39,225 bases of DNA from a virus (Duplodnaviria; Caudoviricetes), in IMG/VR virus record IMGVR_UViG_3300020388_000005, positions 1-39,225 of that record; one strand, written 5' to 3'. Positions 1-35,891 of the stretch are shown here, one piece after another; positions within the stretch are counted from its first letter, which is position 1, and every line of letters starts with the position of its first letter. The notes beneath the pieces are model-generated. The model was not told where the DNA came from. It worked only from the letters and a program-made list of their open reading frames with translations, and ran no database searches. The translations under genes and the position numbers were made by a program.

Positions 1-77
1 GGCCTGGGTAACAGTGCCGCCAGTTGTCGGGCCAATGAGTTTGCCCGCTGTTGCCTCAAAAATGGATGCCATGGTTA
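1..77. repeat. 77-bp exact terminal overlap (copy 1); indicates a circular assembly
   Basis: Positions 1-77 are identical to 39149-39225; joining them places the 38855..39220 gene directly after the major capsid gene with an AGGAGG RBS. Confidence 0.95.
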
Positions 78-89
78 GTACCTCCTGGG

Positions 90-1118
90 TTAATCAAGGG
101 AGCTAACAACGGTCGAGCGGACGATCCCAATGTTCTTGGTTTCGTACACCTTCGACCAGTTGCCCACGGTTTCCAGCTGAGCGCGAGTTGGGTTCACCGT
201 GGTCACGCCCCACTTGGCACCGATCGGGTGGTAGCAGTACCCGAGCGAAATTGCAAGCGCGTCTGACAGGGATAAAATATCGCGGTCAGTTTCGGTCCTG
301 AGCGCAGTGACCTCAGATCCGCCAACAGCGCCCTGAGTCATGAAGTAAACGGCGTACTCCTTAGAAGCACCGCTTCCGTGGGTTTGCACGTCATCGCTGA
401 CCACAACCCGCATCCCCATGAAGACCGGAACAGTGGGGTTGCCAAATGCACCCGCAATCGAACCGCCGCTTGCGGTTGCGCCTGCAGCGGTATCCCCTGC
501 AGCGACGAAATCGACGGCCCTTCTTTCGACAAGCTCGTAATAAGTCGCGCTGTGCATGACCACAGCAGCCAACTTGTCGCCTTGATCGCCCAAGAGGTTC
601 TTGGCACGTGCGACGTGGCTAGGCGTCAATGAGGTTGGTGTATCGCCAGACTCAGAATCCAAACACAGGCCAAAGAAAGCACTGCTGGAAGAGTTGTTAT
701 TCAGCGATCCGAACACACCAGACAGACAGGAAACAAGATCCTTCTGCTTTTGGTGGTTGACGTAGCGGGCCATTTTCTGGCCAATCGCTCCGATGGGGTC
801 GGAGCCAGATGCCAATGCTGCAAGGTCTCTTGCTTCAAAGGCCCTGCCTCTACGAAGCAACACGCCGATCTGGCGATCTGCTTCGATTTTGCCTGGTGTC
901 AATGACGTGCTGTCGGTCAGCACCTCAAAGTCGCCAGAAAGGTTTGCCTTATAGAAAGGCACGGAAACAAAGTCTCCGCTGCCATCGCCGGAAGTATTTA
1001 GCTCGGCCATCGGTTGCACCACACCCGACTGCAAAAATGCGTCGGAACGGGTCGATTCCTCGATGACGTAAGGACTAAATACCTCGGGGATGATCAAATC
1101 TGACCGAAGGGTGGCCAT
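90..1118 (-). CDS. Major capsid protein
   Basis: 342 aa; N-terminal SDLIIPEVF..Y and F..SG motifs typical of siphovirus coat proteins; follows the scaffold gene; AGGAG RBS. Confidence 0.9.
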   Translation of the reverse strand: MATLRSDLIIPEVFSPYVIEESTRSDAFLQSGVVQPMAELNTSGDGSGDFVSVPFYKANLSGDFEVLTDSTSLTPGKIEADRQIGVLLRRGRAFEARDLAALASGSDPIGAIGQKMARYVNHQKQKDLVSCLSGVFGSLNNNSSSSAFFGLCLDSESGDTPTSLTPSHVARAKNLLGDQGDKLAAVVMHSATYYELVERRAVDFVAAGDTAAGATASGGSIAGAFGNPTVPVFMGMRVVVSDDVQTHGSGASKEYAVYFMTQGAVGGSEVTALRTETDRDILSLSDALAISLGYCYHPIGAKWGVTTVNPTRAQLETVGNWSKVYETKNIGIVRSTVVSSLD

Positions 1119-1145
1119 GATCTCCTGAAGTAGTGTTTACGGTGT

Positions 1146-1180
1146 GGGCGTAACCCGATTGGCTCGGCGTAGCGTTGCCA
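1146..1180 (-). promoter_or_regulatory. Two short hairpins with YTACG loops in the capsid gene leader
   Basis: GGG-TTACG-CCC (1146-1156) and TGGC..CGCTACGCCG..GCCA (1160-1180) on the minus strand; the same loop recurs at the scaffold start. Confidence 0.4.
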
Positions 1181-1191
1181 GTTGATTCATA

Positions 1192-1893
1192 TTAACGCTC
1201 GCGCAAACGTTTTTCCGCTTCAGCTTTGTAATTCTGCCAATTCTCAGGGTGCTTTCTAATAATTTCACCCAAGGCCGACATGTTGATGCCGCGATTGATG
1301 CCGCCGACGGTCAAGTCACGAAGCAAATCAGGATCTAGGCCACCGCTTGATGCACTACGCGCTGCAGGTGCGCCACCGCCCTGGGGCTTTGGAGCCTTCT
1401 GCACCCACTCCGGCACGTTGTTCCGAGCCCAATCAGCAACAGGAATTCGCTCATAGCCATCAACCACCACTGGGCCATTGTTGCCCTGCTCAATTTCCAT
1501 GTCCTTCAAATAATTCCGCATAACTAAGTCAGGGTCATGCACAACATCTGACAAGGCGCTAACTGCAGGCGCAGTCAACTCAAGATCACGTACACGGGTC
1601 TCAAGCTCTGCAATGCGTTCATCTTTTTTGGTGCTGTTTTCGCGAAACTGATGCTCTCTGGCTTGCAGTGCTTCGCTGTATTTGCCCTGTGATTCCAGTT
1701 GTTCTTGCTCTGATTTTGCCTTGAAGTCCATCAATTCTTGAACATTGACGCCTTCAGGCACTGATTTGGATTTTTTTAATTTACCAATCAGCTCGTGATT
1801 TTTACGCTCTAATGCTTCGACACTGCTTCTAAGCAGATCCAATTCATTAGTGTCTGCTGTAGGCGTAGCCTCTTGCAGTTGTTCTTCGGACAT
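1192..1893 (-). CDS. Capsid scaffolding protein
   Basis: 233 aa, acidic coiled-coil N-half, P..GGGAP motif, immediately upstream of the capsid gene. Confidence 0.8.
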   Translation of the reverse strand: MSEEQLQEATPTADTNELDLLRSSVEALERKNHELIGKLKKSKSVPEGVNVQELMDFKAKSEQEQLESQGKYSEALQAREHQFRENSTKKDERIAELETRVRDLELTAPAVSALSDVVHDPDLVMRNYLKDMEIEQGNNGPVVVDGYERIPVADWARNNVPEWVQKAPKPQGGGAPAARSASSGGLDPDLLRDLTVGGINRGINMSALGEIIRKHPENWQNYKAEAEKRLRER

Positions 1894-1928
1894 AAATAAC
1901 CCGTAAGGTTAATTGCAACCCAAATGTA

Positions 1929-2207
1929 CTACCAAAGAAATTTATTTGCCCAATAAGCCTTTGAGCTTGGCCCGCGTTTAATGTTTTGCGCGTGCCGGGC
2001 TTTCCAATTTTTGCGTGTTTCAGCAGCGGCTTTGCTTTCACCCTCACGTTTGGGGAAACGCTTTGCACCCTGCAGGCCAAACCTCAGCAGCTTTTCTTTG
2101 CCGTCAACCTTGGTGACTACCGCAGCCGCATATTTGGGGTGCTTTGTGGTCATGATCGGTTTGTTGAGGCCCTCGAAACGGTGGCCTCCTTTTTCAATAT
2201 TGGCCAT
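1929..2207 (-). CDS. Small basic hypothetical protein (FG..G ... WKARH ... YWANK motif)
   Basis: Start moved to MANIEK (2207), TAATG-coupled to the upstream ORF; 92 aa, K/R-rich. Confidence 0.75.
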   Translation of the reverse strand: MANIEKGGHRFEGLNKPIMTTKHPKYAAAVVTKVDGKEKLLRFGLQGAKRFPKREGESKAAAETRKNWKARHAQNIKRGPSSKAYWANKFLW

Positions 2208-2488
2208 TACTTCCGTTTTCTTGTGCTTGCCTTGGGCTTGGCCTTTGATTTTGGCCGCAACAGGTCCGCATCTGCCTGCCGCGCTTTGCCTTTGCCGGTC
2301 ACAAAACTGTTGACCCGGCCCATGGCCCAAGCCTCCATCGGCACGTTGCGCGATCCGCCCTCAAGGTAAGCACCTTGGCCACGGCGATAAACAGCAGATA
2401 GCTGCCCAAGTGTGAACCTGGACTTATCGGCCTTTTTTTTGAGCGCGGCCTTTGTTGCCTCGCTTAGTGGTTTTCTTTTTGGTGCCAC
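2207..2488 (-). CDS. Small basic protein resembling the C-terminal half of DUF5824-like viral proteins
   Basis: L..VYRRG.GAY..GGSR.....WAMGRVNSF motif; likely GTG start at 2488; family recalled from memory. Confidence 0.65.
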   Translation of the reverse strand: MAPKRKPLSEATKAALKKKADKSRFTLGQLSAVYRRGQGAYLEGGSRNVPMEAWAMGRVNSFVTGKGKARQADADLLRPKSKAKPKASTRKRK

Positions 2489-2666
2489 CTTGCTTGGTCC
2501 TCGATGCAGAAACGGCTTTGATGTCGATAAATTCGCCCGCCTTGTAAGCAGCCGCTGTGCGCTTGATCTCTCGGGCTTTGCTTGCGCGATTCTTGGCACC
2601 AGACAGGTACTTTTTCGGCAGGCCAGTGGCCTTGTCCTTTGAAACGCGCCGCATCTTCCGGGCCAT
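2424..2666 (-). CDS. Small basic protein resembling the N-terminal half of DUF5824-like viral proteins
   Basis: 80 aa; PKKYLSG...KAREIK...YKAG motif; TAATG-coupled to the upstream microprotein. Confidence 0.65.
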   Translation of the reverse strand: MARKMRRVSKDKATGLPKKYLSGAKNRASKAREIKRTAAAYKAGEFIDIKAVSASRTKQGGTKKKTTKRGNKGRAQKKGR

Positions 2667-2740
2667 TACTTCTTTTTCTTCTTGGGTTTTTTCTTGCCCG
2701 CAGGTTTTTGGGGCTTCATGGGGCCTTTGTAACTAGGCAT
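2666..2740 (-). CDS. 24-aa lysine-rich microprotein MPSYKGPMKPQKPAGKKKPKKKKK (not in ORF track)
   Basis: Manually translated; TGATG overlap at the start, TAATG overlap at the stop, AAGGAGG upstream. Confidence 0.65.
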   Translation of the reverse strand: MPSYKGPMKPQKPAGKKKPKKKKK

Positions 2741-2862
2741 CAGCTTTCCTCCTTGGATGCTTCTGTTTTAGCTGCTTTTTTCTTGGCAGCGGGCTTTTTT
2801 GGTGGGCAAGCCGGGGCCTCTTCGACGGTCGGTTTGAATTGAAACTTGCTGTGAAGTTGCAT
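2740..2862 (-). CDS. 40-aa basic microprotein MQLHSKFQFKPTVEEAPACPPKKPAAKKKAAKTEASKEES (not in ORF track)
   Basis: Manually translated; stop overlaps the next start (TGATG); fills the gap in the operon. Confidence 0.65.
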   Translation of the reverse strand: MQLHSKFQFKPTVEEAPACPPKKPAAKKKAAKTEASKEES

Positions 2863-2895
2863 GGGACAGGCCCTAACAGCATCACCAGCTTAACT

Positions 2896-3087
2896 TCAGC
2901 CGAAAAACTTGCTTACCAGATCGTTGTCTGCCTTGGTGAGCGAGCTTGCAAGCAAAATTTCCACCATCTGCCCCAGCTTCTCCCTGTGATCACCATCTGC
3001 AGCCTCGATGGCATCATGCAAGAGCCTTGGCACATTGCGGTTGTCGGGCCAGCCGCCAACCATCGCAACAGCTTCTTCAAGCGTCAT
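2896..3087 (-). CDS. Small acidic protein; candidate immunity partner of the MuF toxin domain
   Basis: 63 aa, start codon adjacent to the MuF stop; the immunity role is positional inference only. Confidence 0.6.
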   Translation of the reverse strand: MTLEEAVAMVGGWPDNRNVPRLLHDAIEAADGDHREKLGQMVEILLASSLTKADNDLVSKFFG

Positions 3088-5510
3088 TTAATAGCTTTTT
3101 GCATAGCATTATCGACCCAATCATAGAGGCCACTGGCCTTTTTCTTCAACCCGGCTGGATTCAAGACATATTGAACAAAGGCCTCAGCAAAGCGTTCTCT
3201 TTCATTCGTTAGACCGTATTGGCTGACTGAGGCTATCTGCCCAGGCACTTGGAATTGGCTGCCACTAAAAGCGCCCCCTTTAATACCAAAGTAGTGAACT
3301 TGGTGGCCAACCTCATGAAGGCTTGTAGATATCCAGCGTTGCTGTTTATTAATGCCAGCAGAATTTGAAAACGGTAGTTGACCTTTTCCAGTTTTTACAT
3401 AGTCCAAGCTTCGATTTAAAGTTTTTTCTGCAGCGTCGAGTAAATCTTTTTTCTTGCCTAGTGCCGAATCTCTTTGCATTGTAATGGCCACAACGCCTTG
3501 ACTTTGACGCGTGTATCCGTTGGCTCCTTTGTGTGGTGCGATGAGTGTCGGCAATACCTTTGTGTCACCTGCCTCAAGACGCTCCAGCATATATTCTGCC
3601 CACTCGGTTTCTTCGCCCGAAAAACCCTGCTTCTTAAGTGATGCAATCTTTGTTTTTTGTGACGCAGCAATAGCTTGAATTTTTGCGCCCTTGTAGCTTT
3701 GCAAAGCCTTTGAATTTTTTCTTATTTTTTCATCCCTAAAAGTGTAATGTTGAATCACATTATTTTTACGAACGAAGCTTCTATACTTTTCAATATTTTG
3801 TTTTCTTAAGGGGTCGTCTGACAAGGCCGTAAGCACCCGGTCAAAAGTTGCGCCAGTGCCGCCCACGGACTCCATATATTCAGCGACCTCTGGTGAATCA
3901 ACAAACTGAGCCTTAAAAGGCTTTTGCCTCTGCAAGTCACGACTTAATTTGTCGGCTTCTGCTTTGGTCTTAGCTGCAGCTGCTCTGGCCTTATCTGCAG
4001 CTGCTTTGGCTGCTGCTGTCTTTGCCTTAGCCCGTGCCAGCTCATCACGCAAATCCTGCGTTGTCTTTGGTTTGGCTTTAGGGGCCGCAGCTTTCTTGCT
4101 CTTTGTGATCTTGTCCGGCTCCCCATAACGGGAACGCAACTGTTTAAGGCTCACCTCTGAGCCGTCCTCACGCATGAATCGCTTCATGGCACCCTCCGGG
4201 CCATAGCGATCAGCCAAGCGGTTGTAATAACGGGCCTTCTCAAATGCTCCAGGCGTTGCATTGCCACCGTTCAGCATCCGGGCCTGGGCAGGGCTGGCAT
4301 CAAACCTTGATTTCTTGCCCGCCTTAGTCGTGCCCCGCAGGTCGTACAAATGCTGTGCTGCGCTAGTGCCTACAGGTACACGGCCACCTTTGGGGTCTGC
4401 ACTAGACGGCGTGCCCTCTTTAGTCGGGCGATAGCCAATCTTTGAACTAGGTGGTGGAATATCAATCCCAAATTTCTTGGATGCGCCCGCGTAATCAATC
4501 ACCGGCACAGTCGTAGATCTGCAACCGAAATGTGGTGGGTTGGCTGGGGTTGGCCCCTTGCCGTAGAAGAACTCCTTCTGATCAAGGTTGCGGCAAATCG
4601 CCGTGGTGTTGCTATCCAGCGTGGCAATCCACCTGTACTTCTTCGTGAGGTTTGGGTTGGCCTTATAAACCTGCAAGCTCGCAGCGTTTGACGTGGCGTT
4701 GACGCTGGTCCTCACCAACGTCCGTACCTGATGCTTTGCCATCTTCCAAGCGTTGCCCTGTTGGGCCAAGGCCACCTGACGTGGGGTCAGTGCCTCAGTT
4801 GAAAAGCCCAGTTCTCCATACAAAGACCGTGCAATCGATTCTGTGCTTTCACCTGTGAGCAGGCCATCCAGCACCGCACGCGAGAACAGATCGCCCTGGC
4901 GTTCAGCTAAACCGCGAAATGCTTTGACAATGCTGGTGCCATCAGGCATCCGAATAACAGCGCCCTGCCGTGCCGTCAGCTTCATCACTGCGCCTGGCCC
5001 TTTCACTGCCTCCTCAAAGCTTTCCTGCAAAAGGTTGGTGCCTACATCCAGTGGGTCAGCTTTCACCACAGCCTTGGCAAAGGACTCAGTGACCTCGACC
5101 GTCCTTACCTGAGTCTTGACCGCTGCAGGCACTACCCTTTGCAGCTCCGCTCTGGCAAACGCAACCTCAACATCAGCCAAGCCATCCAGCTGTTGAATTA
5201 ACTCGTTGATGCTTTGCCCAGACCACTTCTTCATAGCGTCCAGGTTTTGCTTTATCAGGGCCCGCATCCGTGCAGCCTTGAACTGCGGCTTTTTGCTGCT
5301 TGGCATCTTGTCGATGCGCTCCAGCTCTCGCACAGCCTTGACGATTTGCCGTCGGTAAGACTCCAGCAGCTTGTTCGCGACGCCATTGCTGAACCGATTT
5401 AGATCTAGTGCCTTGCGGTAGTAGCTCTCAGGCACTCCCGCAACGCCACCAGGCTTGATGGTGTTATCAAGAAACCTGACCTGTTCCCCAGCACTAGGCG
5501 TTGCAGTCAC
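3084..5510 (-). CDS. muf: MuF / SPP1 gp7-like minor head protein with a C-terminal zincin (HExxH) metallopeptidase extension
   Basis: RTLVRT, W.ATLD..T..IC..LD and PPHFGCRST MuF motifs; Ala/Lys linker; C-terminal LHEVGHQVH...SQYG.TN..ERFAEAF. Confidence 0.88.
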   Translation of the reverse strand: MTATPSAGEQVRFLDNTIKPGGVAGVPESYYRKALDLNRFSNGVANKLLESYRRQIVKAVRELERIDKMPSSKKPQFKAARMRALIKQNLDAMKKWSGQSINELIQQLDGLADVEVAFARAELQRVVPAAVKTQVRTVEVTESFAKAVVKADPLDVGTNLLQESFEEAVKGPGAVMKLTARQGAVIRMPDGTSIVKAFRGLAERQGDLFSRAVLDGLLTGESTESIARSLYGELGFSTEALTPRQVALAQQGNAWKMAKHQVRTLVRTSVNATSNAASLQVYKANPNLTKKYRWIATLDSNTTAICRNLDQKEFFYGKGPTPANPPHFGCRSTTVPVIDYAGASKKFGIDIPPPSSKIGYRPTKEGTPSSADPKGGRVPVGTSAAQHLYDLRGTTKAGKKSRFDASPAQARMLNGGNATPGAFEKARYYNRLADRYGPEGAMKRFMREDGSEVSLKQLRSRYGEPDKITKSKKAAAPKAKPKTTQDLRDELARAKAKTAAAKAAADKARAAAAKTKAEADKLSRDLQRQKPFKAQFVDSPEVAEYMESVGGTGATFDRVLTALSDDPLRKQNIEKYRSFVRKNNVIQHYTFRDEKIRKNSKALQSYKGAKIQAIAASQKTKIASLKKQGFSGEETEWAEYMLERLEAGDTKVLPTLIAPHKGANGYTRQSQGVVAITMQRDSALGKKKDLLDAAEKTLNRSLDYVKTGKGQLPFSNSAGINKQQRWISTSLHEVGHQVHYFGIKGGAFSGSQFQVPGQIASVSQYGLTNERERFAEAFVQYVLNPAGLKKKASGLYDWVDNAMQKAIK

Positions 5511-5776
5511 ACGCCCTCCAAACCCAATTCGGCAGGGTCACAATCCACATAAACAAACACGTCAGCCCCATCTCGCAAAGCTGTACCTACTACTGCGGTG
5601 AACTTTGCTGTATTAATCATCCAATCGTCGCTTTCCCTCAACTTTGTTTCTTGTATTCCGCTGATTTGGCCGTTGTCGTACCAAGTAGTTCTCACAATCC
5701 CAAAATGTGGACCCATACAACTGCCCTGATACACAAATAGGTTTCGCTCTCGACGCTCCGACTTATTCCGCCACAT
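5507..5776 (-). CDS. Hypothetical protein between portal and MuF
   Basis: 89 aa, overlaps both neighbours (GTGA coupling to MuF). Confidence 0.65.
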   Translation of the reverse strand: MWRNKSERRERNLFVYQGSCMGPHFGIVRTTWYDNGQISGIQETKLRESDDWMINTAKFTAVVGTALRDGADVFVYVDCDPAELGLEGV

Positions 5777-7214
5777 CTTCTACGTCCTCATCTTCTTCTG
5801 GCAGCGTATCTTCATCCTCTTCCTCGGGCTCTTGCTCCTGCTCTGGTTCAGGCTCCTGCGTGCCTGATAGACCGCCCATTTCAAGCGCCTCCAGCTCTTC
5901 TTCAACATCCAGATCATCAAGCACCTCTCCCTTGTTGAGTTCTTCAAGCAAGGTTTTCTGGGTGATAGTCCCGGCAGTGTAAAGCTGCAGCAATGCTTGT
6001 ATTTCTTGCGGCTGCAAACGTTGACCCATAAAGTCACGATTGACGTAAACCGTGCCTGGCTGGCTTTCGTTTAGATATTCGGCATGAAAACGCAAACAGT
6101 TGTCCAGCAGATCTTGCATTTGCTGAGCAATCAGCATCATGGTGCTGTCGCCTTGACTGCGGTCAATGCGCTTGGACTCGGCTGTTTCTGCTGACAGCTT
6201 TTGGCCCAAGACACTGGCCAACGCAAGCGTATTGATTTCTGTCGCGATCCGGTCCAGGTGCTTGAACTGCGCCTCGTAACTGTTGCCAGATGGCTCAATA
6301 AACTCAACTCTCGAATCAGTAGGCAGACTCATGGCTTCTGATGGGCCAGCCGTTATTTCTTCCGCGCTTGGCGGCATCCCGTAAATGGCCAAGAAAGGCA
6401 CTGCACTAATTCTCAACTGGTTGCTGAGATCAGAGCTTGCCTGATAGTGCTTAAGGTTTAGCTCTGCGATGTCATTCATTGGTGGCCGCGACTCAAGCAC
6501 GCCAAAGCGGTTGGAATATGCCACCGCAAACGGAATTTCTTTGACAGTGGTTGTGCCCTCGTCAAACAACTTGAATTCACCGTCCTGTTCTTTGCGGTGT
6601 ATCTCGTAAGCACCGGGAGTCAGGACTCGGACCTGCTCAACAACCTTCTCCCCGTATTTACCGTCGGGCTCAGTAATCGTTTCAAATAAACGCAGCTGAG
6701 TCAGCTTCTGTGCGCCATCAATAATTTCACTTCGCCAGCCAAGGATGTCCCTTGGGCTGTAGCGAACGAAGTATGGTCTTCCGCTGCCATCAGACGAAGC
6801 ATCGACCAGAACACCTACATGGCCATAACGCAGGCAAATTCTTGTTGCCTCATAGAGAAACTGCGTGATGTCGTTTCCCTGCAAATCTGCATCGAACAGT
6901 TGCTCTGTGATCGTGTCACTTACGTCGGTCAATCTGACCGGCTTGCGGGTCAACATGCCCGCCAACATTTTTTCGATGCGAGCGTAGAAAGGGCTGAGAC
7001 AGCTAATTTTTAGACGATTATCGTATGAAAGATCATCCTCGCGTGGGTATTGCGGAAGAAATTTTCTGTGACCCTTACGCAGGCCGTAGGTGCCCGATAA
7101 CAGGACTTCGAGAAGGCTCCAATGGTCAGCCATTTGCATATACGCCTGGTTAGGCGAATCAACACTGCTGACGCTGCCAACACGCTTAGCGCCACCAATC
7201 CCAGATGAATACAC
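5763..7214 (-). CDS. Portal protein (DUF4055-like)
   Basis: 483 aa after terL; LPQYPRE...Y..RL, DADLQGN and IPF motifs; acidic low-complexity tail. Confidence 0.88.
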   Translation of the reverse strand: MYSSGIGGAKRVGSVSSVDSPNQAYMQMADHWSLLEVLLSGTYGLRKGHRKFLPQYPREDDLSYDNRLKISCLSPFYARIEKMLAGMLTRKPVRLTDVSDTITEQLFDADLQGNDITQFLYEATRICLRYGHVGVLVDASSDGSGRPYFVRYSPRDILGWRSEIIDGAQKLTQLRLFETITEPDGKYGEKVVEQVRVLTPGAYEIHRKEQDGEFKLFDEGTTTVKEIPFAVAYSNRFGVLESRPPMNDIAELNLKHYQASSDLSNQLRISAVPFLAIYGMPPSAEEITAGPSEAMSLPTDSRVEFIEPSGNSYEAQFKHLDRIATEINTLALASVLGQKLSAETAESKRIDRSQGDSTMMLIAQQMQDLLDNCLRFHAEYLNESQPGTVYVNRDFMGQRLQPQEIQALLQLYTAGTITQKTLLEELNKGEVLDDLDVEEELEALEMGGLSGTQEPEPEQEQEPEEEDEDTLPEEDEDVEDVAE

Positions 7215-7262
7215 GGCTAAGCCCCTACCAATAATTTGATATTAATCGAGAGAACTGCAGAC

Positions 7263-7292
7263 ACAAGAAAAGGGCAGTTACCTGCCCCTCTC
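7263..7292 (-). terminator. Intrinsic terminator
   Basis: GAGAGGGGCAG-GTAA-CTGCCCTTTTC hairpin with a GNRA loop and T-rich tail. Confidence 0.75.
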
Positions 7293-7460
7293 AATATTCA
7301 ACTGGAAGGGGAGAACACAGCGTCTAGGGCGAACCCCGACCCGATCCAAATTGACTATACAGCGGTCACCGCTCCGGAGAGCTGGGGGTAACTCGGCCCC
7401 CTGGTGAGTTCTGTACCGTGGACTTTGACCCGGCAGCCCGCAAGCCATAGCCGGTTCTGC
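7265..7460 (-). ncRNA. Candidate structured non-coding RNA between terL and portal
   Basis: About eight mutually compatible helices found by hand, TATATT -10 box at 7465-7470 and a terminator at the 3' end; longest non-coding gap in an otherwise compact genome. Confidence 0.55.
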
Positions 7461-7462
7461 AA

Positions 7463-8824
7463 TCAATATACTCTTATTCCAGTGCCACGCCCAGCCCGGA
7501 CGTGTAGCGGGTTGTATAGAGCCCAAACCACGTAACCCAAGCTGTCAGTGAGATGGTCGTAGCCCCCCTCCTTATCGGGCTGCTCAGGATTGCGCTCTGA
7601 ATAACCCTGCAGCTCCAAGCACTCAATCATCTTTTCGCACTTGGCAAGGATCTGTAAACGGACTTCGCCTTTGCCGTTCACTAGCAGCGCCTGGAGTGCT
7701 GCCACTCTATCTCTGATTAGTGGGTTACTTTTACCTGCTACGACAGTGAGGTTGGCCATCTGCAACAGCTCGATATCTGTTCTCGCGGCATTAGTGCTGC
7801 GGTTTGCGCCTGATGAGTCAGGGTACACATATACAGGAACTTGTAAGTGAGCTGATTTTTCTTTAATGGCTTTTGCCATTGAGTCGGTGTCATGGGCTTT
7901 CACTTCGTCGATTAGAAGAAATGAATTGCCCAGGCGTACCCCGCACACTGCGTTGCAATTACCAATATTGAAATCGCAACCCCAGTGACGTGGCTCATTG
8001 TCCAAGTTGACCGGGGCCGTCTCAATGACATGCTTCGCTCGGTCAAAACGGTCGTAAACCTGGCCAGTGTTCAGGTTGACGAATACGCCGTTTAGATAGG
8101 ACTGAATGAGTTGCTCTGGGTAATTCTGGAGTAAAGAATCAATGAACCCCTCTGGAAGGAAAGGGTTATCCGTAGTCTTAGCGCGAATTAACGCGGTGTC
8201 ATCACCCGCGTTTTTCTCAAACGTGTCGAACGCCCAGCCGAAGCCTTCTGGAGTAGTGGCTGCATAGAACTGCTGGACATTGCCAGAACGCAGGCGAGCC
8301 AGTGCCATTCGCATGGCTTGGGTAGCAACTGATTTGTTTGCTGTATCAGCTTCGTCGAATCCAACAGCGCAAAGGTTCTGACCTCGAATCCTGTTTGCTG
8401 TCTCCATGGTGCGAAGAAGGATGGTATGTGAGCCCTCTTTGAAATGAATACGGTATTCAGGCAAGGGGCTTACACGAAAGTCAAAAGGAATCTCAAATTT
8501 TGTTAGCAATTCGTCCATTTGACGCATGAGTATATCTCTCAGCATTGGTGCAATGGGTTCAAACAAGGCAGAAACGTGGCCCACGTTTAGGGCCGCCATG
8601 TGAAGGCTTTTGCAAATCAGGCCGTAAGTTTTGCCCGCTCCGAATCCACATACAAGGCCAAGTTTGCGGTGCTCGGTGTCTTCGCAAAAAGCGATTTGAT
8701 GTGGAAGCAACCCCGCTTGCACACGCTGCAAAACTTCTGCGGTGGTCGGCTTGCTGAATCGTTGCAACTCAAGGATTGGAGCAAGCAGCGGTTCACTGCC
8801 TACGACATCATCAGCCAGGCTCAT
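7463..8824 (-). CDS. terL: Terminase large subunit
   Basis: Walker A GFGAGKT, Walker B VGFDEAD, TTPEG motif, nuclease DFN / YPDSSG / DHLTDSLGY. Confidence 0.95.
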   Translation of the reverse strand: MSLADDVVGSEPLLAPILELQRFSKPTTAEVLQRVQAGLLPHQIAFCEDTEHRKLGLVCGFGAGKTYGLICKSLHMAALNVGHVSALFEPIAPMLRDILMRQMDELLTKFEIPFDFRVSPLPEYRIHFKEGSHTILLRTMETANRIRGQNLCAVGFDEADTANKSVATQAMRMALARLRSGNVQQFYAATTPEGFGWAFDTFEKNAGDDTALIRAKTTDNPFLPEGFIDSLLQNYPEQLIQSYLNGVFVNLNTGQVYDRFDRAKHVIETAPVNLDNEPRHWGCDFNIGNCNAVCGVRLGNSFLLIDEVKAHDTDSMAKAIKEKSAHLQVPVYVYPDSSGANRSTNAARTDIELLQMANLTVVAGKSNPLIRDRVAALQALLVNGKGEVRLQILAKCEKMIECLELQGYSERNPEQPDKEGGYDHLTDSLGYVVWALYNPLHVRAGRGTGIRVY

Positions 8825-9144
8825 GACATCTCGAAGCGCAGAAGTCGAGCCTGTAACTCGATGGCCTTTAGTGCTGTGCTGTATTGGCTTTTGTTAGTGG
8901 CCTTGCGCTGGATGTCTTTTAAGGCGCAAAGCGATTCATGAAGCCACTCAGGCCGCTCCAGCTCAGCGTCCAGGCGCTGGTGATCACGAGCACGCTTGAT
9001 GTATTCCTCTAGCTGGCGAGTGCTGAGCCCCCAGGCGTCCGCGCCATATTGCAGGATTTGGGTTCTGCTGTTGCCTTCCAATAAAAGCTTGTAAACGGTA
9101 TTTATCCGCTCATCTACCTGAATATTGGTCGATTTAGCAGTCAT
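8821..9144 (-). CDS. Probable terminase small subunit (HTH)
   Basis: 107 aa, HTH-like WGLSTRQLEEYI, ATGA-coupled to terL. Confidence 0.65.
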   Translation of the reverse strand: MTAKSTNIQVDERINTVYKLLLEGNSRTQILQYGADAWGLSTRQLEEYIKRARDHQRLDAELERPEWLHESLCALKDIQRKATNKSQYSTALKAIELQARLLRFEMS

Positions 9145-9153
9145 ACCCAGACG

Positions 9154-9411
9154 TTAACAGGGCTTGGAAGTTTGGTGAAGTGAATTAAGGGCGACAGAGG
9201 TTATATGAAACGCCTGATCGCGTGAGAGAAAACCTTTGTATTTGCGATGAACGTCGGCAGCGGCCTTGTAAAGCTGCGAGGTGGAGGGCTTGAAATCTGA
9301 ATTGGTCAAGTGGTCAATGACGACGTGAGAAAGCGGTTTTTGATTTTGCTCAGCGATGCGTTTGTAAGCGTCTAGCTGGTCTTGCTTCAGGTTGATTGTG
9401 ACTTTAGCCAT
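9154..9411 (-). CDS. Hypothetical protein, possibly ribbon-helix-helix DNA-binding
   Basis: KVTINL....LDAYKRIA.....LS pattern resembles RHH. Confidence 0.55.
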   Translation of the reverse strand: MAKVTINLKQDQLDAYKRIAEQNQKPLSHVVIDHLTNSDFKPSTSQLYKAAADVHRKYKGFLSRDQAFHITSVALNSLHQTSKPC

Positions 9412-9442
9412 TAGAAGAAATGCAAAGAATGCAGTTAATTTT

Positions 9443-9637
9443 TTACTCAGGAATTTTTACTTGATCCCCTATCCAGTGCAAATATGGGCCAATATCAACC
9501 TCTGGTTGCTGCGCGGTGTACCACCTATAACCGCAGCTCTGGCAATGTCGGCGGCGCACTGTTTCGTACGGGCCATCAACAGTTTTTTTGGTGCATACAA
9601 CTCTAACAAGAAAAGAACCGCATTTTTTACATTTCAC
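9443..9637 (-). CDS. NrdR N-terminal-like zinc-ribbon protein
   Basis: KC..CG...RV..T.......RRRHC..CGYRWYT; likely GTG start at 9637; no ATP-cone. Confidence 0.7.
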   Translation of the reverse strand: MKCKKCGSFLVRVVCTKKTVDGPYETVRRRHCQSCGYRWYTAQQPEVDIGPYLHWIGDQVKIPE

Positions 9638-9827
9638 TCGCAGAAAGCCAAAGAACCCGATCAATTTCTTTCAATTGGCCCGCAATAAACTCATAAGTTG
9701 ACTCAGGTAAAGGCTCAACATCTTCGAAGGTGTTGTCAAGAACTGCACGCGATAAGGCCAAAGATTCGTCTAGCAACATCTGCAAGCGAAAAATGACAGG
9801 CCGTTGCCTGACTGTGTGAGGGTTCAT
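9627..9827 (-). CDS. Hypothetical protein
   Basis: 66 aa, abuts and overlaps neighbours in the same operon. Confidence 0.6.
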   Translation of the reverse strand: MNPHTVRQRPVIFRLQMLLDESLALSRAVLDNTFEDVEPLPESTYEFIAGQLKEIDRVLWLSASEM

Positions 9828-10337
9828 TCAGTTGATTGAAGGTAGGAGCTGCTCAACGTTTTGAAGCTGCTCTTTCACGTCAGCAATGTATGCAGGCAGC
9901 AGTGGCTTGAGTCCTGTGCGGACTTGTTGTCTTAACGAGTTGATATCGCGGGCAGTGGCCTCCCAGTTGATACGACGTTGACGGTGAATGTCGCGGATGA
10001 TGTCTTTATCGACGTTGACGCCTATGGGTTGTTGACGGCCACTTGTGTCAGTCGTGCAAACGCCACTGGAATTACGAAACCCCGCGCGAGTTGTTTGGGC
10101 CTCGTAATCCTGAGCCTCGTAAGCGGCAACGCAATGACAGATGACGGCTAAATCTGAGCCACCATGCCGATGGATGTTGCCGTCGATAATTTCGGCGTCG
10201 TAATCGGGCAAGTAATGGTTCAGGAGCCCATCGCCATTGGTGACGATGCCAGTGTCGTAGCAAGCGAAGCAGGAGACCTTTGGAGCGTAAAAAGTTGCGT
10301 CACGGTCAAGAGACGACCGCTTGTGTGATGAAGTCAT
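9828..10337 (-). CDS. Hypothetical replication-module protein with CxxC...CxC zinc ligands
   Basis: CFACYDTG ... ICHC; directly downstream of the initiator. Confidence 0.65.
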   Translation of the reverse strand: MTSSHKRSSLDRDATFYAPKVSCFACYDTGIVTNGDGLLNHYLPDYDAEIIDGNIHRHGGSDLAVICHCVAAYEAQDYEAQTTRAGFRNSSGVCTTDTSGRQQPIGVNVDKDIIRDIHRQRRINWEATARDINSLRQQVRTGLKPLLPAYIADVKEQLQNVEQLLPSIN

Positions 10338-10352
10338 TGGCCAGGGGTGGGT

Positions 10353-11162
10353 TTAGAAGGGATCGCCTTCCTGAGCCCCAAGATGGGTCAGGGGGCTTGG
10401 TTTAGCTGCGGCTGCTGTGGCAGTTTCCAAGAAGGATTCATAACGGCCATCACGCAGCCAACGGAAACAATCGGGGTAGCAGGTCAGGAACCGGCCCTTT
10501 TGCTCTCCTCTGGCCTGATCCTTCAACGAAGCGGCCAAAGTGCCTTCTAGACGCTCCTGGACGCCACTGGTGAGCTTTTTGTATTCAACCCATGCCTTGG
10601 GCTTTGATTGGCCAGTCGCTCTGTTGCTGATTTTTTGGTACTGCTGCCAAAAGGCCTGGAACTCGTCGCTGTAGGCATTTCGTCCTGGCTTTTGGCCTTT
10701 TGCAGCTTTACTTGTTGTTTGTAGTTCTTTTGTATTTAGTTCTTTTGTATTTAGTTCGGCGGCATCTCCTGCCGGGGGGTCCGGCACCATTTGCCGGGGG
10801 GTGCGGCATTTCCTGCCTAGGGGTGCGGCAGATGCTGCCGGGGGGTCTAAGGACGGTGGGGCGACGTTGGCCAGGTGGTTCACGGTGACCCGATAGAGGT
10901 TTGTGCAGCAGTCGCCTCGGTCGTTTCGACGTGATTCACGTTGAAGGAGTCCCATGGACTCCAGCTGCCCAGCGACAGCCCGAGCAGTGCGGACAGAAAC
11001 ACACGCACCGTCAGCGATGGTTTTGATGGACGGCCAGCAGTCGGCGTTTGCTCCGGCATAGGTCTGGATAACCCAAAGAACTGCGAGCTGATTTGGCTGA
11101 AGGGTTCCGCGAATTGCTGTTGGAAGTGACGTGAAGGGAACGCCTTGCGGGATGAATGACAT
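10353..11162 (-). CDS. Phage replication initiator (N-terminal winged HTH)
   Basis: CWPSIKTIA....SVRT......LE..GLL.R..R......TNLY pattern; F..FW..Y and WL...RYE C-terminal motifs; internal iterons. Confidence 0.8.
   Translation of the reverse strand: MSFIPQGVPFTSLPTAIRGTLQPNQLAVLWVIQTYAGANADCWPSIKTIADGACVSVRTARAVAGQLESMGLLQRESRRNDRGDCCTNLYRVTVNHLANVAPPSLDPPAASAAPLGRKCRTPRQMVPDPPAGDAAELNTKELNTKELQTTSKAAKGQKPGRNAYSDEFQAFWQQYQKISNRATGQSKPKAWVEYKKLTSGVQERLEGTLAASLKDQARGEQKGRFLTCYPDCFRWLRDGRYESFLETATAAAAKPSPLTHLGAQEGDPF
10722..10850. repeat. Putative replication origin: four 22-bp-period iterons plus an AT-rich 15-bp tandem repeat
   Basis: TGCC(G/T)(G/A)GGGGT units start at 10770, 10792, 10814 and 10836; TAGTTCTTTTGTATT x2.4 at 10722-10757. 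Confidence 0.8.
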
Positions 11163-11191
11163 GGATTAGCGTTGGAGGGCATGATTACCAG

Positions 11192-11218
11192 GCGGGGATT
11201 CGAGCACCCCGCTTTTTT
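11192..11218 (+). terminator. Terminator-like hairpin directly before the rusA ATG
   Basis: GCGGGG-ATTCGAGCA-CCCCGC-TTTTTT. Confidence 0.45.
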
Positions 11219-11638
11219 ATGCGTTACGAAATCGAAATTTCAGGAATCGAAGCCGCACCGCAAGGGTCAAAAATTCGCACTCGTTACGGGATGCGTGAAG
11301 CCTCAGAACGTGTCGGGCCTTGGAGAGACGCCGTGAGAGTTGAGGCCTTGGCTGCCTGTGGGGAATTAATTGAGGAAGCCTGCAGCGTTGCCGTTGAGTT
11401 TCGGTTTTTGCGCCCTAAAGGTGATTTTGGGGCCAAAGGCAAGTTGCGTCCATCAGCTCGCACGCATTACACCGCCAAGAAAAACGACATCGACAAAGTT
11501 TGTCGGAGTTTGCTTGATGGGCTCACAGGTTCGGCATTTACCGATGATTGTCTTGTGGTGGTGCTTAGTGCTTGCCAGAGATACTGCCTGCCTGGGGAAC
11601 GTCCAGGAGCAACTGTGACGATTGAAACTCTGGCCTAA
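11219..11638 (+). CDS. rusA: RusA-family Holliday junction resolvase
   Basis: PQGSK, F...RPK, DIDK..R..LDGL and DD..VV motifs; start moved to ATG 11219. Confidence 0.88.
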   Translation: MRYEIEISGIEAAPQGSKIRTRYGMREASERVGPWRDAVRVEALAACGELIEEACSVAVEFRFLRPKGDFGAKGKLRPSARTHYTAKKNDIDKVCRSLLDGLTGSAFTDDCLVVVLSACQRYCLPGERPGATVTIETLA

Positions 11639-11700
11639 TGCCTACCAAACACCTACTAATCGGGCGCATACTTAGCTCAGTTCAGACAACCACCCCGATG
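11614..11700 (+). promoter_or_regulatory. Early promoter cassette copy 1
   Basis: Degenerate TGTG box at 11614, CTACCA-N5-CTACTA at 11642, CATACT at 11667, CAACCACCCCGATG. Confidence 0.7.
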
Positions 11701-11925
11701 TTAAGCCCCACCGCAGTCATCAACTCCGCCATCGTCACCGGTTTGCCTGAAGGCTGGGAACACTCTGAAGCAGCTGCTGGCTTCTTTGGGCCAGACCTTG
11801 CAATGGTCGAGGCCAAAGCGACCCGCAAAGGCTTTGTTTGGGAGGCCACTACCCCTGATCTCGATTACAAAACCTTTGGGCCCACCAAGGTGTTCGCAGC
11901 AATGGCCTGGGCAGAGGCAAACTGA
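11698..11925 (+). CDS. Hypothetical early protein
   Basis: Start moved to ATG 11698 after the cassette; followed by a terminator. Confidence 0.7.
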   Translation: MLSPTAVINSAIVTGLPEGWEHSEAAAGFFGPDLAMVEAKATRKGFVWEATTPDLDYKTFGPTKVFAAMAWAEAN

Positions 11926-11930
11926 GCACA

Positions 11931-11952
11931 AGGGGCTAAGGCCCCTTTTTTT
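11931..11952 (+). terminator. Intrinsic terminator
   Basis: AGGGGC-TAAG-GCCCCT plus T-tract. Confidence 0.85.
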
Positions 11953-12037
11953 GTGCCAACCTAAAAAGCTGCACAATCCCTACCACTTGGCTACCAGCCA
12001 GGCCCATAATTAGCTCAGTTCAGTCAACCACCCCATG
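11952..12037 (+). promoter_or_regulatory. Early promoter cassette copy 2
   Basis: TGTGCCAACCTAAAAAGCTGCACA, CTACCA-N5-CTACCA at 11980, CATAAT at 12005, CAACCACCCCATG. Confidence 0.8.
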
Positions 12038-12274
12038 AACCTCTCCACCTTTTTCGCTGAGAAAGACTTCACCATCAAGACCTACGAAGTCACTAGCCCT
12101 ACGACCGGCGACTCGCACATCATCACCACCGACGTTGTGATTGATCGCATCCTCAGCACTAAGGACCAAGAGCGTCAGCAAATCACCGGCATCCTTCAGC
12201 AACTGGATTTCCGCAACGGCGATTTCCACCACTTCTTTAAGCACCTGGCCACTGGCCTTGCTGCTCAGTTCTGA
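12035..12274 (+). CDS. Hypothetical early protein
   Basis: 79 aa, FFAEKD...LDF.NGD..HFFKHLA; starts at the cassette ATG and ends at a hairpin. Confidence 0.8.
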   Translation: MNLSTFFAEKDFTIKTYEVTSPTTGDSHIITTDVVIDRILSTKDQERQQITGILQQLDFRNGDFHHFFKHLATGLAAQF

Positions 12275-12289
12275 GGCCTTCGGGCCTTT
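12274..12289 (+). terminator. Hairpin / weak terminator
   Basis: AGGCC-TTCG-GGCCT followed by a short T run. Confidence 0.6.
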
Positions 12290-12362
12290 CCGGGGATAAC
12301 AGTGAGGAGTCGCCGAACTTATGGGCGCAGGCTTGTCAACCCCGGCCTATTACCTCTGCTTT

Positions 12363-12716
12363 ATGGAATTAACTAAACCCCAGCTGTCCTACCTGGCCAG
12401 CTTGATTCGTGAAGACCTGGCCAATGGGGTCATGGCTTGGGACACCCCAGAGGGCCAGTCCTTAACCCGCGAAGATATTCGCGAATTGTGCGAGGGCTTA
12501 GAGCCTCCAAAAAAGGAAAGCCTGCATGAAATGCCGCTTGATCGGTTGATGCTGCCACTTCGTGCCCACAACGCTCTTTGGCGGCGTGGTTACAAAAACG
12601 TCGGGGCTGTTATGGCGTTGACCCGTAGAGACTTGCTGTTGATAAGCCACGTTGGCGAGGGCAGCGCGGACGACATCTTGGCCGCTATCGAAAACTTTCA
12701 AGAGGAACTGCAATGA
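12363..12716 (+). CDS. Protein containing an RNA polymerase alpha subunit C-terminal domain-like fold
   Basis: PLDRLMLPLRAHNALWRRGYKNVGAV...TRRDLL.I.HVGEGS..DI matches the alpha-CTD pattern (L.L..R..N.L...I..+.DL.....L.....G.KS..EI). Confidence 0.8.
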   Translation: MELTKPQLSYLASLIREDLANGVMAWDTPEGQSLTREDIRELCEGLEPPKKESLHEMPLDRLMLPLRAHNALWRRGYKNVGAVMALTRRDLLLISHVGEGSADDILAAIENFQEELQ

Positions 12717-21262: not shown

Positions 21263-21607
21263 TCAGAGATCAAACGTTTTGCCAACTTTGAGGTTGAAGT
21301 TTGTGTCTGAATTGATGCTGGCAAAGCTCAGCTCGCTGTAACCCGCACCGAAGCTGTAACCGGCCTTACCGCTGACGCCCACCTCAGTGTCGCCAGTGTC
21401 CGGAACCTGGACCATAGGCCCGATTTGAGCAAAAAAGCCCTCGCCTTTAGCGCCCAGGTGCAGGTCAACGGTCGCGCCGGTCACGCCGTTTTCGCCAGCT
21501 CCGACGTTAGCTTCTGGATTGAAATACAAAGGGTTTGCGATCGCAGACAGGGGGGCCAATGCACTGACCGCAATGACGGCGGCACCAGTCACAATAGATT
21601 TGATCAT
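21263..21607 (-). CDS. Small outer-membrane beta-barrel-like protein
   Basis: Signal peptide (AIA-N), alternating amphipathic strands Y.N.E.N.G, DLH.G, Q.GP, SGK.G, ELSF, K.G..F; start moved to ATG 21607. Confidence 0.7.
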   Translation of the reverse strand: MIKSIVTGAAVIAVSALAPLSAIANPLYFNPEANVGAGENGVTGATVDLHLGAKGEGFFAQIGPMVQVPDTGDTEVGVSGKAGYSFGAGYSELSFASINSDTNFNLKVGKTFDL

Positions 21608-21684
21608 TTTGAAACGAGAAAACGTTTTCCTTGGATACATTAACCGGCCCAGTCAATGGACGGTTTTGGATGTGATCTACAGGA

Positions 21685-35678: not shown

Positions 35679-35702
35679 ATCAGCCAGTTAACTTGTCCCA
35701 GC

Positions 35703-35891
35703 TTACCGCCGTTGCTGCTTGGCGCGATCCATTGCCTTCTGCTCCTTTTCAGCCTTGAGTTCGTGGTAGGCAGCAAAATAAATAAGCTCCGCATCGGTCA
35801 ATTCGTTGCGAAGCCTGCTTACGGTCATGCCTAATTCGCAGGCCAGGAAAAACTCAAAATAAGCCCAGCTGTCCTGCGTTAGTCGTTTTTT
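35703..35891 (-). CDS. gpT portion of the G-T tail chaperone, reached by -1 frameshift
   Basis: Slippery A AAA AAC at 35885-35891; the -1 frame reads RLTQDSWAYFEFFLACELGMTVSRLRNELTDAELIYFAAYHELK...RR*. Confidence 0.8.
   Translation of the reverse strand, partial: KKRLTQDSWAYFEFFLACELGMTVSRLRNELTDAELIYFAAYHELKAEKEQKAMDRAKQQRR

Follow-up and report, generated by a model that had tools for sequence, protein, structure and literature searches.

A candidate structured-RNA cassette at an optional insertion site between the terminase and portal genes of a cyanosiphovirus-like phage

What lies in the largest gap of a siphovirus genome, and does its position between the terminase gene (terL) and the portal gene mean that it serves packaging? 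The question is raised by a 39,225-bp record, here called the window (the whole stretch of DNA analysed), which represents a complete virus with direct terminal repeats and encodes a siphovirus gene set according to PHROG profile matches. The terL–portal gap (7215–7462, 248 nt) is, as an earlier note on this DNA held, the largest of the genome with 62 genes used; four more gaps measure 200–229 nt. The same note proposed a discrete minus-strand RNA of ~190 nt in this gap, acting in packaging or on portal expression. The genes concerned are:

5763..7214, minus strand: portal gene, 483 aa (PHROG 145), preceded by a purine-rich RBS at ~7229-7222 (−)
7463..8824, minus strand: terL, 453 aa (PHROG 2), whose last codons form the left edge of the cassette
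21263-21640, minus strand: cyanophage outer-membrane-protein-like barrel (PF24653)

The TerL of the window is ~50% identical to those of the cyanophages KBS-S-2A, S-H1, and MED4-184, and a relative at 60% TerL identity is situated on a Cyanobium MAG contig. Together with the PF24653 barrel, these resemblances make a marine picocyanobacterium the likely host. The profile search reveals no integrase among the 63 ORFs of the window. A 131-aa protein encoded at 12321-12716 (+) contains an RNA polymerase alpha C-terminal-like domain (PF03118, E 2e-10) and is possibly a transcription-hijack factor. At 35679-35878 (−), the interval that separates a 118-aa gene from the tape measure gene appears to be coding; it perhaps encodes a tail assembly chaperone's second half, reached by frameshifting.

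The gap and its predicted fold

The predicted parts of the element are the following:

7465..7470, minus strand: −10-like hexamer TAnnnT, made up from the final two sense codons and the stop codon of terL
7430..7454, minus strand: hairpin A, two stems with a 3-nt bulge between them and a UNCG-type tetraloop at 7442-7439
7344..7423, minus strand: arm B, a long irregular helix capped by a three-way junction, from pair probabilities
7401-7384, minus strand: first junction stem of arm B, 5-bp G/C stem with an 8-nt loop
7382-7371, minus strand: second junction stem of arm B, 4-bp stem with a UNCG-type loop
7322..7340, minus strand: hairpin C, bearing a bulged A and capped by a stable tetraloop
7312..7316, minus strand: 3' strand of the closing helix, partner 7458-7454, pair probability 0.74-0.85
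7293..7311, minus strand: tail, pyrimidine-rich and mostly single-stranded, an imperfect inverted repeat of the portal leader
7263..7292, minus strand: intrinsic terminator, 11-bp stem, GNRA loop, and U-tract
7239..7270, minus strand: right-hand spacer, conserved, 32 nt, with a further TAnnnT (7244-7239) at its end

The −10-like hexamer and four helices lie on the minus strand exactly where the earlier note had placed them, and all five positions are correct. The RNA presumably starts near 7458, as we assume from the usual −10 spacing. In a promoter and terminator scan of 1–12500, no −35 consensus is detected for the window cassette, and the terminator at 7263..7292 is the first-listed site. 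The GNRA-capped terminator that had been described is predicted here too, its 11-bp stem reaching a pair probability of 0.97–1.0.

The single-sequence fold of 7240–7480 on the minus strand has a z-score of −2.11, with 7 of 200 shuffles equal or better, and the plus strand of the same segment gives −1.14; without the terminator, the value is −0.98 (allele L132, identical in sequence to the window). Taken as a single sequence, the predicted fold of the window thus appears only modestly above chance. Pair probabilities of 0.84–1.0 are obtained for the inner arm (7416–7357), the three-way junction, and the terminator, and values of 0.03–0.13 for the 5' hairpin (7454–7430), the outer helix (7423/7344), and the hairpin at 7340–7322. 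These three score low because a competing long rod pairs hairpin A with hairpin C. In allele L106, the substitution G7441A would disrupt one pair of this rod and hairpin A reaches a probability of ~0.9, and allele L001 possesses hairpin A with its rod partner (hairpin C) missing; the sequence comparison therefore favours the modular fold drawn by the earlier note over the rod. The pairing that it proposed between a loop at 7394 and an upstream segment at 7410 is given probability 0 when treated as a nested helix, and helix 7407/7366 would be its competitor. The pentamer repeated in unpaired linkers does occur at 7429 and 7355, but the segment that bears the second copy is absent from alleles L009, L169, L001, and L025.

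Occupancy of the site and the frame of the cassette

Two scans of TerL relatives describe what the site holds elsewhere. In the first, covering the best 80 of 108 TerL relatives in IMG/VR, 15 of the 80 loci carry an RNA-type insert and one a protein insert (1.4 kb), 59 are empty (24–40 nt), and five end too early. Among the 16 loci with TerL at least 90% identical to that of the window, eight hold the RNA cassette, seven are empty, and one is truncated, the empty close relatives being L004–L008, L010, and L012. In L004–L008, the element is absent from phages whose TerL and portal are 96–98% identical to those of the window, and gap sizes of 248, 180, 126, and 27 nt form a series among phages more than 96% alike. 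The second scan, covering the best 80 of 265 members of a TerL family only ~30% identical to the window's, yields six RNA-type loci, 20 protein inserts, 52 empty loci, and two uninformative ones. In a quick TerL tree of the C-terminal 220 residues, filled alleles are mixed with empty ones. Protein genes are found at the same site in KBS-S-2A, S-H1, and others; KBS-S-2A carries an 85-aa gene and a terminator-like hairpin there. Among cyanosiphovirus-like phages, insertion into this gap is optional: in close relatives it is found empty, RNA-filled, or protein-filled.

In L323–L328, L332, and L336, the site is occupied by small ORFs in tandem arrays, 0.5–1.2 kb in all, several with promoter-like and terminator-like sites. 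L094, L174, and L179, compared with the window, show that the two TerL families, ~30% identical, possess the same C-terminal motif, and the portals behind both families are 65–70% identical to that of the window; the common motif and the similar portals suggest, at the level of sequence, that terminases have been exchanged at one junction.

The left edge of the frame is the hexamer at the end of terL, which is present in 37 of 37 distinct RNA alleles versus 1 of 26 other alleles and, in the second TerL family, in 6 of 6 RNA loci versus 0 of 52 empty loci; RNA alleles are kin, and these counts represent related sequences rather than independent events. The hexamer is retained although the codon encodes V or L. 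Protein inserts utilize the same edge: AbrB-like genes (L317:1472-1795, PF14250; L334; L353:2852-3169) start 26 nt after a hexamer-type stop, and L327 and L332 possess a full −35/−10 built on the terL stop codon. Both kinds of insert lend independent support to the proposed promoter role of the hexamer.

At the right edge, the spacer pattern follows the terL stop in 69 of 69 loci, with a portal match downstream in 66, the pattern-found alleles having been selected on this spacer. The final 25 bases of this spacer are found a single time in the window. Empty alleles contain a TAnnnT overlapping the stop, at the position equivalent to the second TAnnnT of the spacer, and the spacer likely restores the promoter of the portal operon. 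The terminator stems covary across alleles (helix 6 in the family D alignment). The same frame is found behind the two TerL families ~30% identical. Looser and module-specific patterns add few extra alleles, every one of them at the terL–portal site; module patterns are found only in cassette-carrying contigs, and the genome itself contains no second copy of the cassette. The G+C content is 57.7% in the cassette and 50.8% in the genome, a difference also expected of any structured RNA.

Cargo families, covariation and transcript evidence

Within this frame, 35 distinct predicted transcripts of 57–295 nt are distinguished, 37 after further collection, and the second scan adds L281 and L292 to these. 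The window family exists as hairpin A alone, A+C, and A+B+C. Family D consists of a three-way junction, a pyrimidine 4x4 loop, and a kink-turn-like arm; family E of a multi-way junction with an invariant tail; and family F of one hairpin, besides a few singletons. L087, L099, L105, L179, and L230 combine modules of these families in mosaic fashion, L105 and L230 having as many as three or four. In the window family, hairpin A forms the entire cargo of the short alleles L001, L025, and L216, and its closing pair is U-G, U-A, or C-G across six alleles. Hairpin C is carried by the window, L106, L009/L115, and L169, and ~68 nt of arm B form an expansion in place of the 4-nt loop of a short stem in L009 and L169. 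Indels in this family remove whole helices and leave closed stems.

The closest allele, L106, differs from the window at seven positions, all seven of them compatible with the fold (in simulation, P ~0.004 for breaking no pair while changing one on both sides). Pair 7415/7358 changes on both sides from U-A to G-C, three loop changes all stay within the UNCG or GNRA type, and none of the seven differences falls in the lower stem of hairpin A. The window family comprises only seven distinct alleles after two collection rounds, with this one two-sided change. Across the families, the sense strand is more stable than the antisense strand in 34 of 35 alleles, and UNCG-capped stems number 16 on the sense strand, 4 on the antisense strand, and 4.35 in shuffled sequences (maximum 12 in 200 shuffles). 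In family D, 95.8% of the cells are paired and two-sided changes occur in 12 of 39 pairs, a level that none of 500 shuffles reaches and that exceeds all slid controls; the structure was derived from the same alignment, and 3 of the 12 covarying pairs belong to the terminator. Family E contains two-sided changes in 2 of 32 pairs. The A-like module outside the window family contains them in 3 of 10 pairs, and 35 of 500 shuffles score as high. Without the terminator, folding z-scores are weak for most alleles.

In family D and L230, a stem is retained together with a 3-nt bulge whose last base is U and with GA/AG positions in tandem, a motif resembling a kink-turn; no strict kink-turn is found in the window's own cargo. 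No homology is detected between hairpins A and C of the window and look-alike modules of other families. Since the covariance models of D, F, and the A-like module fail to recognise the window cargo, it constitutes a separate family in the shared frame. What is conserved in the cargos are helices, junctions, and the GA/GA kink-turn-like motif, not long unpaired seeds. On this comparison, a real, selected RNA structure is highly probable.

The gap is also overlapped by an 82-aa ORF (7278-7526), which is very unlikely to be the functional unit even though its frame is open across the cargo in both the window and L106. The earlier note had named conservation of this ORF as the result that would speak against an RNA, and the ORF is not conserved: the same frame yields 82, 94, 59, and 26 aa in four alleles, and both base changes of the compensatory pair 7415/7358 alter its amino acids. 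It matches no PHROG or Pfam profile.

The cassette resembles no listed RNA. Rfam and ARAGORN yield no Rfam, tRNA, or tmRNA match in the window at the gathering threshold, the best local E-value being 0.057. On the relatives, Rfam gives chance-level matches only in 18 loci and none in a set of 12. The search of GenBank phages by blastn with the window gap and L105 returns only chance matches of 31–39 nt. No published description of this locus was found in the literature, and the cassette motifs have no match in four supplementary files of PMC10690425, whose remaining files may hold single modules.

For transcription, four sequencing runs (X1–X4) were compared over 5500–9500, the metatranscriptome X1 having been selected for holding the stretch. 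Its only contig on this interval, of 208 nt and depth 3.3, corresponds to 7284–7488 with 0 differences; it covers the cassette almost exactly and ends inside the terminator. However, it begins 18 nt upstream of the −10 element, inside terL. Part, at least, of the nucleic acid behind it (RNA or DNA) therefore did not originate at the predicted site, and contigs display neither strand nor ends. In X2, a short allele of the L001 type is present, which may be DNA; X3 and X4 have no contig on the cassette and are uninformative either way. The agreement of the X1 contig with the extent of the cassette is suggestive. Of the discrete ~190-nt RNA proposed earlier, a structured non-coding unit of ~195 nt with a −10-like hexamer, an intrinsic terminator, and no Rfam or tRNA match stands, and its existence as an independent transcript is fairly probable.

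Function and its alternatives

The reading preferred here, at a probability of about 0.42, is that the cassette is an optional moron-like unit whose predicted, structured RNA of ~195 nt would serve in trans to decoy a host protein. Host RNA polymerase would start near 7458 and stop near 7263, and the right spacer would re-supply the portal promoter, leaving the head genes unsilenced by the insertion. Alleles would pass between phages via recombination in the conserved terL C-terminus and the portal start. The cargo would act by its shape, that is, by multi-way junctions and stable tetraloops, with kink-turn-like motifs in the sister families, and the RNA would occupy an RNA-binding protein of the host, for instance a nuclease or defence sensor, or else a regulator. 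The turnover of cargos would result from a host–phage arms race. Conservation in shape rather than in seeds fits protein binding better than base pairing. Furthermore, modules that are swapped and stacked, in a slot common with protein inserts including a transcription regulator, fit an arms-race locus. Considered overall against every other mode of action, a protein decoy falls somewhat short of even odds. The wider proposal, in which marine cyanosiphoviruses maintain the terL–portal site as a swappable RNA-gene slot, fill it from a pool of structured modules exchanged much as protein domains are, and use each module to decoy another host protein of defence or regulation, is rather doubtful.

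Against the decoy speak the smallest alleles, single hairpins that could represent cargo decay. Searches of GTDB, Cyanobiaceae genomes, and rRNA found no binding partner, target, or host counterpart for such a decoy. The cassette frame occurs in 0 GTDB genomes, and thus no prophage copy exists there. For a host origin, 25 of 301 Cyanobiaceae genomes matched at E ≤0.05, and the 16 loci examined are short matches within long ORFs. The family D model (R1) matches 0 of 121 genomes; model R2 matches 24 of 101 at E ≤0.05 (rough E-values), the 10 loci read being scattered and overlapping long ORFs. One R2 match adjoins a sequence that we take to be cobalamin-riboswitch-like. As for rRNA mimicry, sites of 9–12-mers occur at chance level in one Cyanobiaceae rRNA operon (P 0.23–0.69). 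The invariant 12-nt hairpin tip of family E (L265:3539-3550) equals the tip of a Cyanobiaceae 23S rRNA hairpin near position 730; family E was considered as a 23S rRNA mimic and rejected, the overall count of shared words being not above chance.

The decoy has to be weighed above all against an RNA that acts by base pairing, as an anti-sRNA or mRNA regulator of the AgvB/AsxR type, with the tail (7311–7293) as the seed in the window. A precedent exists in AgvB and AsxR, in which a variable 5' cargo precedes a constant 3' end at a moron site (PMC4104026). Four alleles keep the window tail nearly unchanged, and in L089, L091, and L092 the first 30 nt past the terL stop form 13–14 bp with the conserved loop of Cyanobiaceae Yfr1, at −21 to −23 kcal/mol (p ≤0.005 versus shuffles); L292:2827-2857 reaches −18. 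However, the Yfr1 pairing is absent from the short alleles L094, L101, L108, and L112, the window allele gives p 0.94, and 3 of 37 alleles are positive in a test in which G-runs pair easily. The complement in the short alleles is possibly an anti-Yfr1 RNA, or else a G-run artefact. In the short hairpins, stem changes are two-sided and the G-rich strand is paired; moreover, the window tail has no specific phage target, and the large multi-junction cargos exceed what a seed requires, which leaves base pairing unlikely. Less likely again is a cis element, in which the insert would stabilise the 3' end of the terminase mRNA and, with its terminator and new promoter, uncouple terminase from portal expression, leaving the RNA no task of its own. 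The X1 contig starts within terL, and the parts of the cassette that vary least are its terminator and its right spacer, in keeping with such a role. The helix between tail and portal RBS that it could utilize in read-through RNA has a probability of 0.15. The portal regulation advanced by the earlier note is a weak candidate on this pairing: the portal ranks 7th among 60 gene starts, and the tail is present in only 4 of 37 alleles. A cis role leaves unexplained why the left hexamer is retained across V/L codons and reused by protein inserts, and why 100–250 nt of covarying cargo are present; moreover, most loci in each of the two unbiased scans are empty (59/80 and 52/80).

An improbable further alternative is a non-functional or decaying passenger, the relic of a once useful insert or of a small selfish element, its structure owed to a past function. 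Stepwise loss could produce the size series of 248, 180, 126, and 27 nt, and the z-scores without the terminator are mostly weak, but indels take out entire helices, substitutions preserve pairs, the genome lacks a second copy, and module patterns are confined to cassette contigs. A packaging RNA analogous to that of phi29 is the position-based guess of the earlier note; the terL–portal location and the three-way junction in arm B speak for it. It is highly improbable: the element is absent from kin with 96–98% identical TerL and portal, the fold differs among filled alleles, and even sister alleles that are filled lack the three-way junction. Absence from near-identical phages makes an essential motor part very unlikely, and a structured RNA next to packaging genes is not necessarily a packaging RNA. 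The phi29 pRNA is described as an essential RNA whose secondary structure is conserved (PMC5066667). The window element shares a similar length and a three-way junction with it, whereas it is optional, its fold is not conserved, and its phage is of the TerL siphovirus type.

The decoy reading draws its closest parallels from phage accessory elements. Compared with phage morons (PMC3594210), the window cassette is likewise extra relative to close kin, has its own predicted terminator and a candidate promoter, lies in a morphogenesis operon, and deviates in G+C, and its site holds protein genes elsewhere; unlike theirs, the cargo at the window site is non-coding and modular. AgvB and AsxR are anti-sRNAs of lambdoid phages at a moron site (PMC4104026). 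Their fixed site, conserved 3' end, and variable 5' part recur here, and the shortest alleles (57–62 nt) are similar in size. In contrast, the variable part here extends to ~260 nt, is highly structured, and recombines by entire modules, and the cassette shows no sequence similarity to them and no identified base-pairing target. The cabRNA is a structured RNA transcribed from staphylococcal phage terminase genes that triggers defence, according to PMC10686824. It is also a structured phage RNA of the terminase region and sets a precedent for the binding of such RNAs by defence proteins, whereas the window cassette is a separate optional unit after terL.

Moron-borne phage sRNAs are already known, and the folds of the cassette are not in Rfam. 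Phage accessory loci are usually read as protein genes only; in this seemingly blank gap, several undescribed RNA folds appear in one predicted promoter–terminator frame, exchanged between TerL families ~30% identical. If the decoy-slot proposal is true, the site would be a hotspot of RNA-based counter-defence unlike any described so far. The filled and empty pairs in near-identical phages, together with the size series, constitute ready controls for the effect of a phage RNA on a picocyanobacterial host. Beside the cassette, L319 and L329/L330 contain a conserved non-coding stretch after a small ORF, which takes up the last ~110 nt of the terL–portal gap and gives no Rfam match at gathering level; its closing stem differs on both sides between L319 and L329/L330, and the stretch is possibly a further undescribed RNA.
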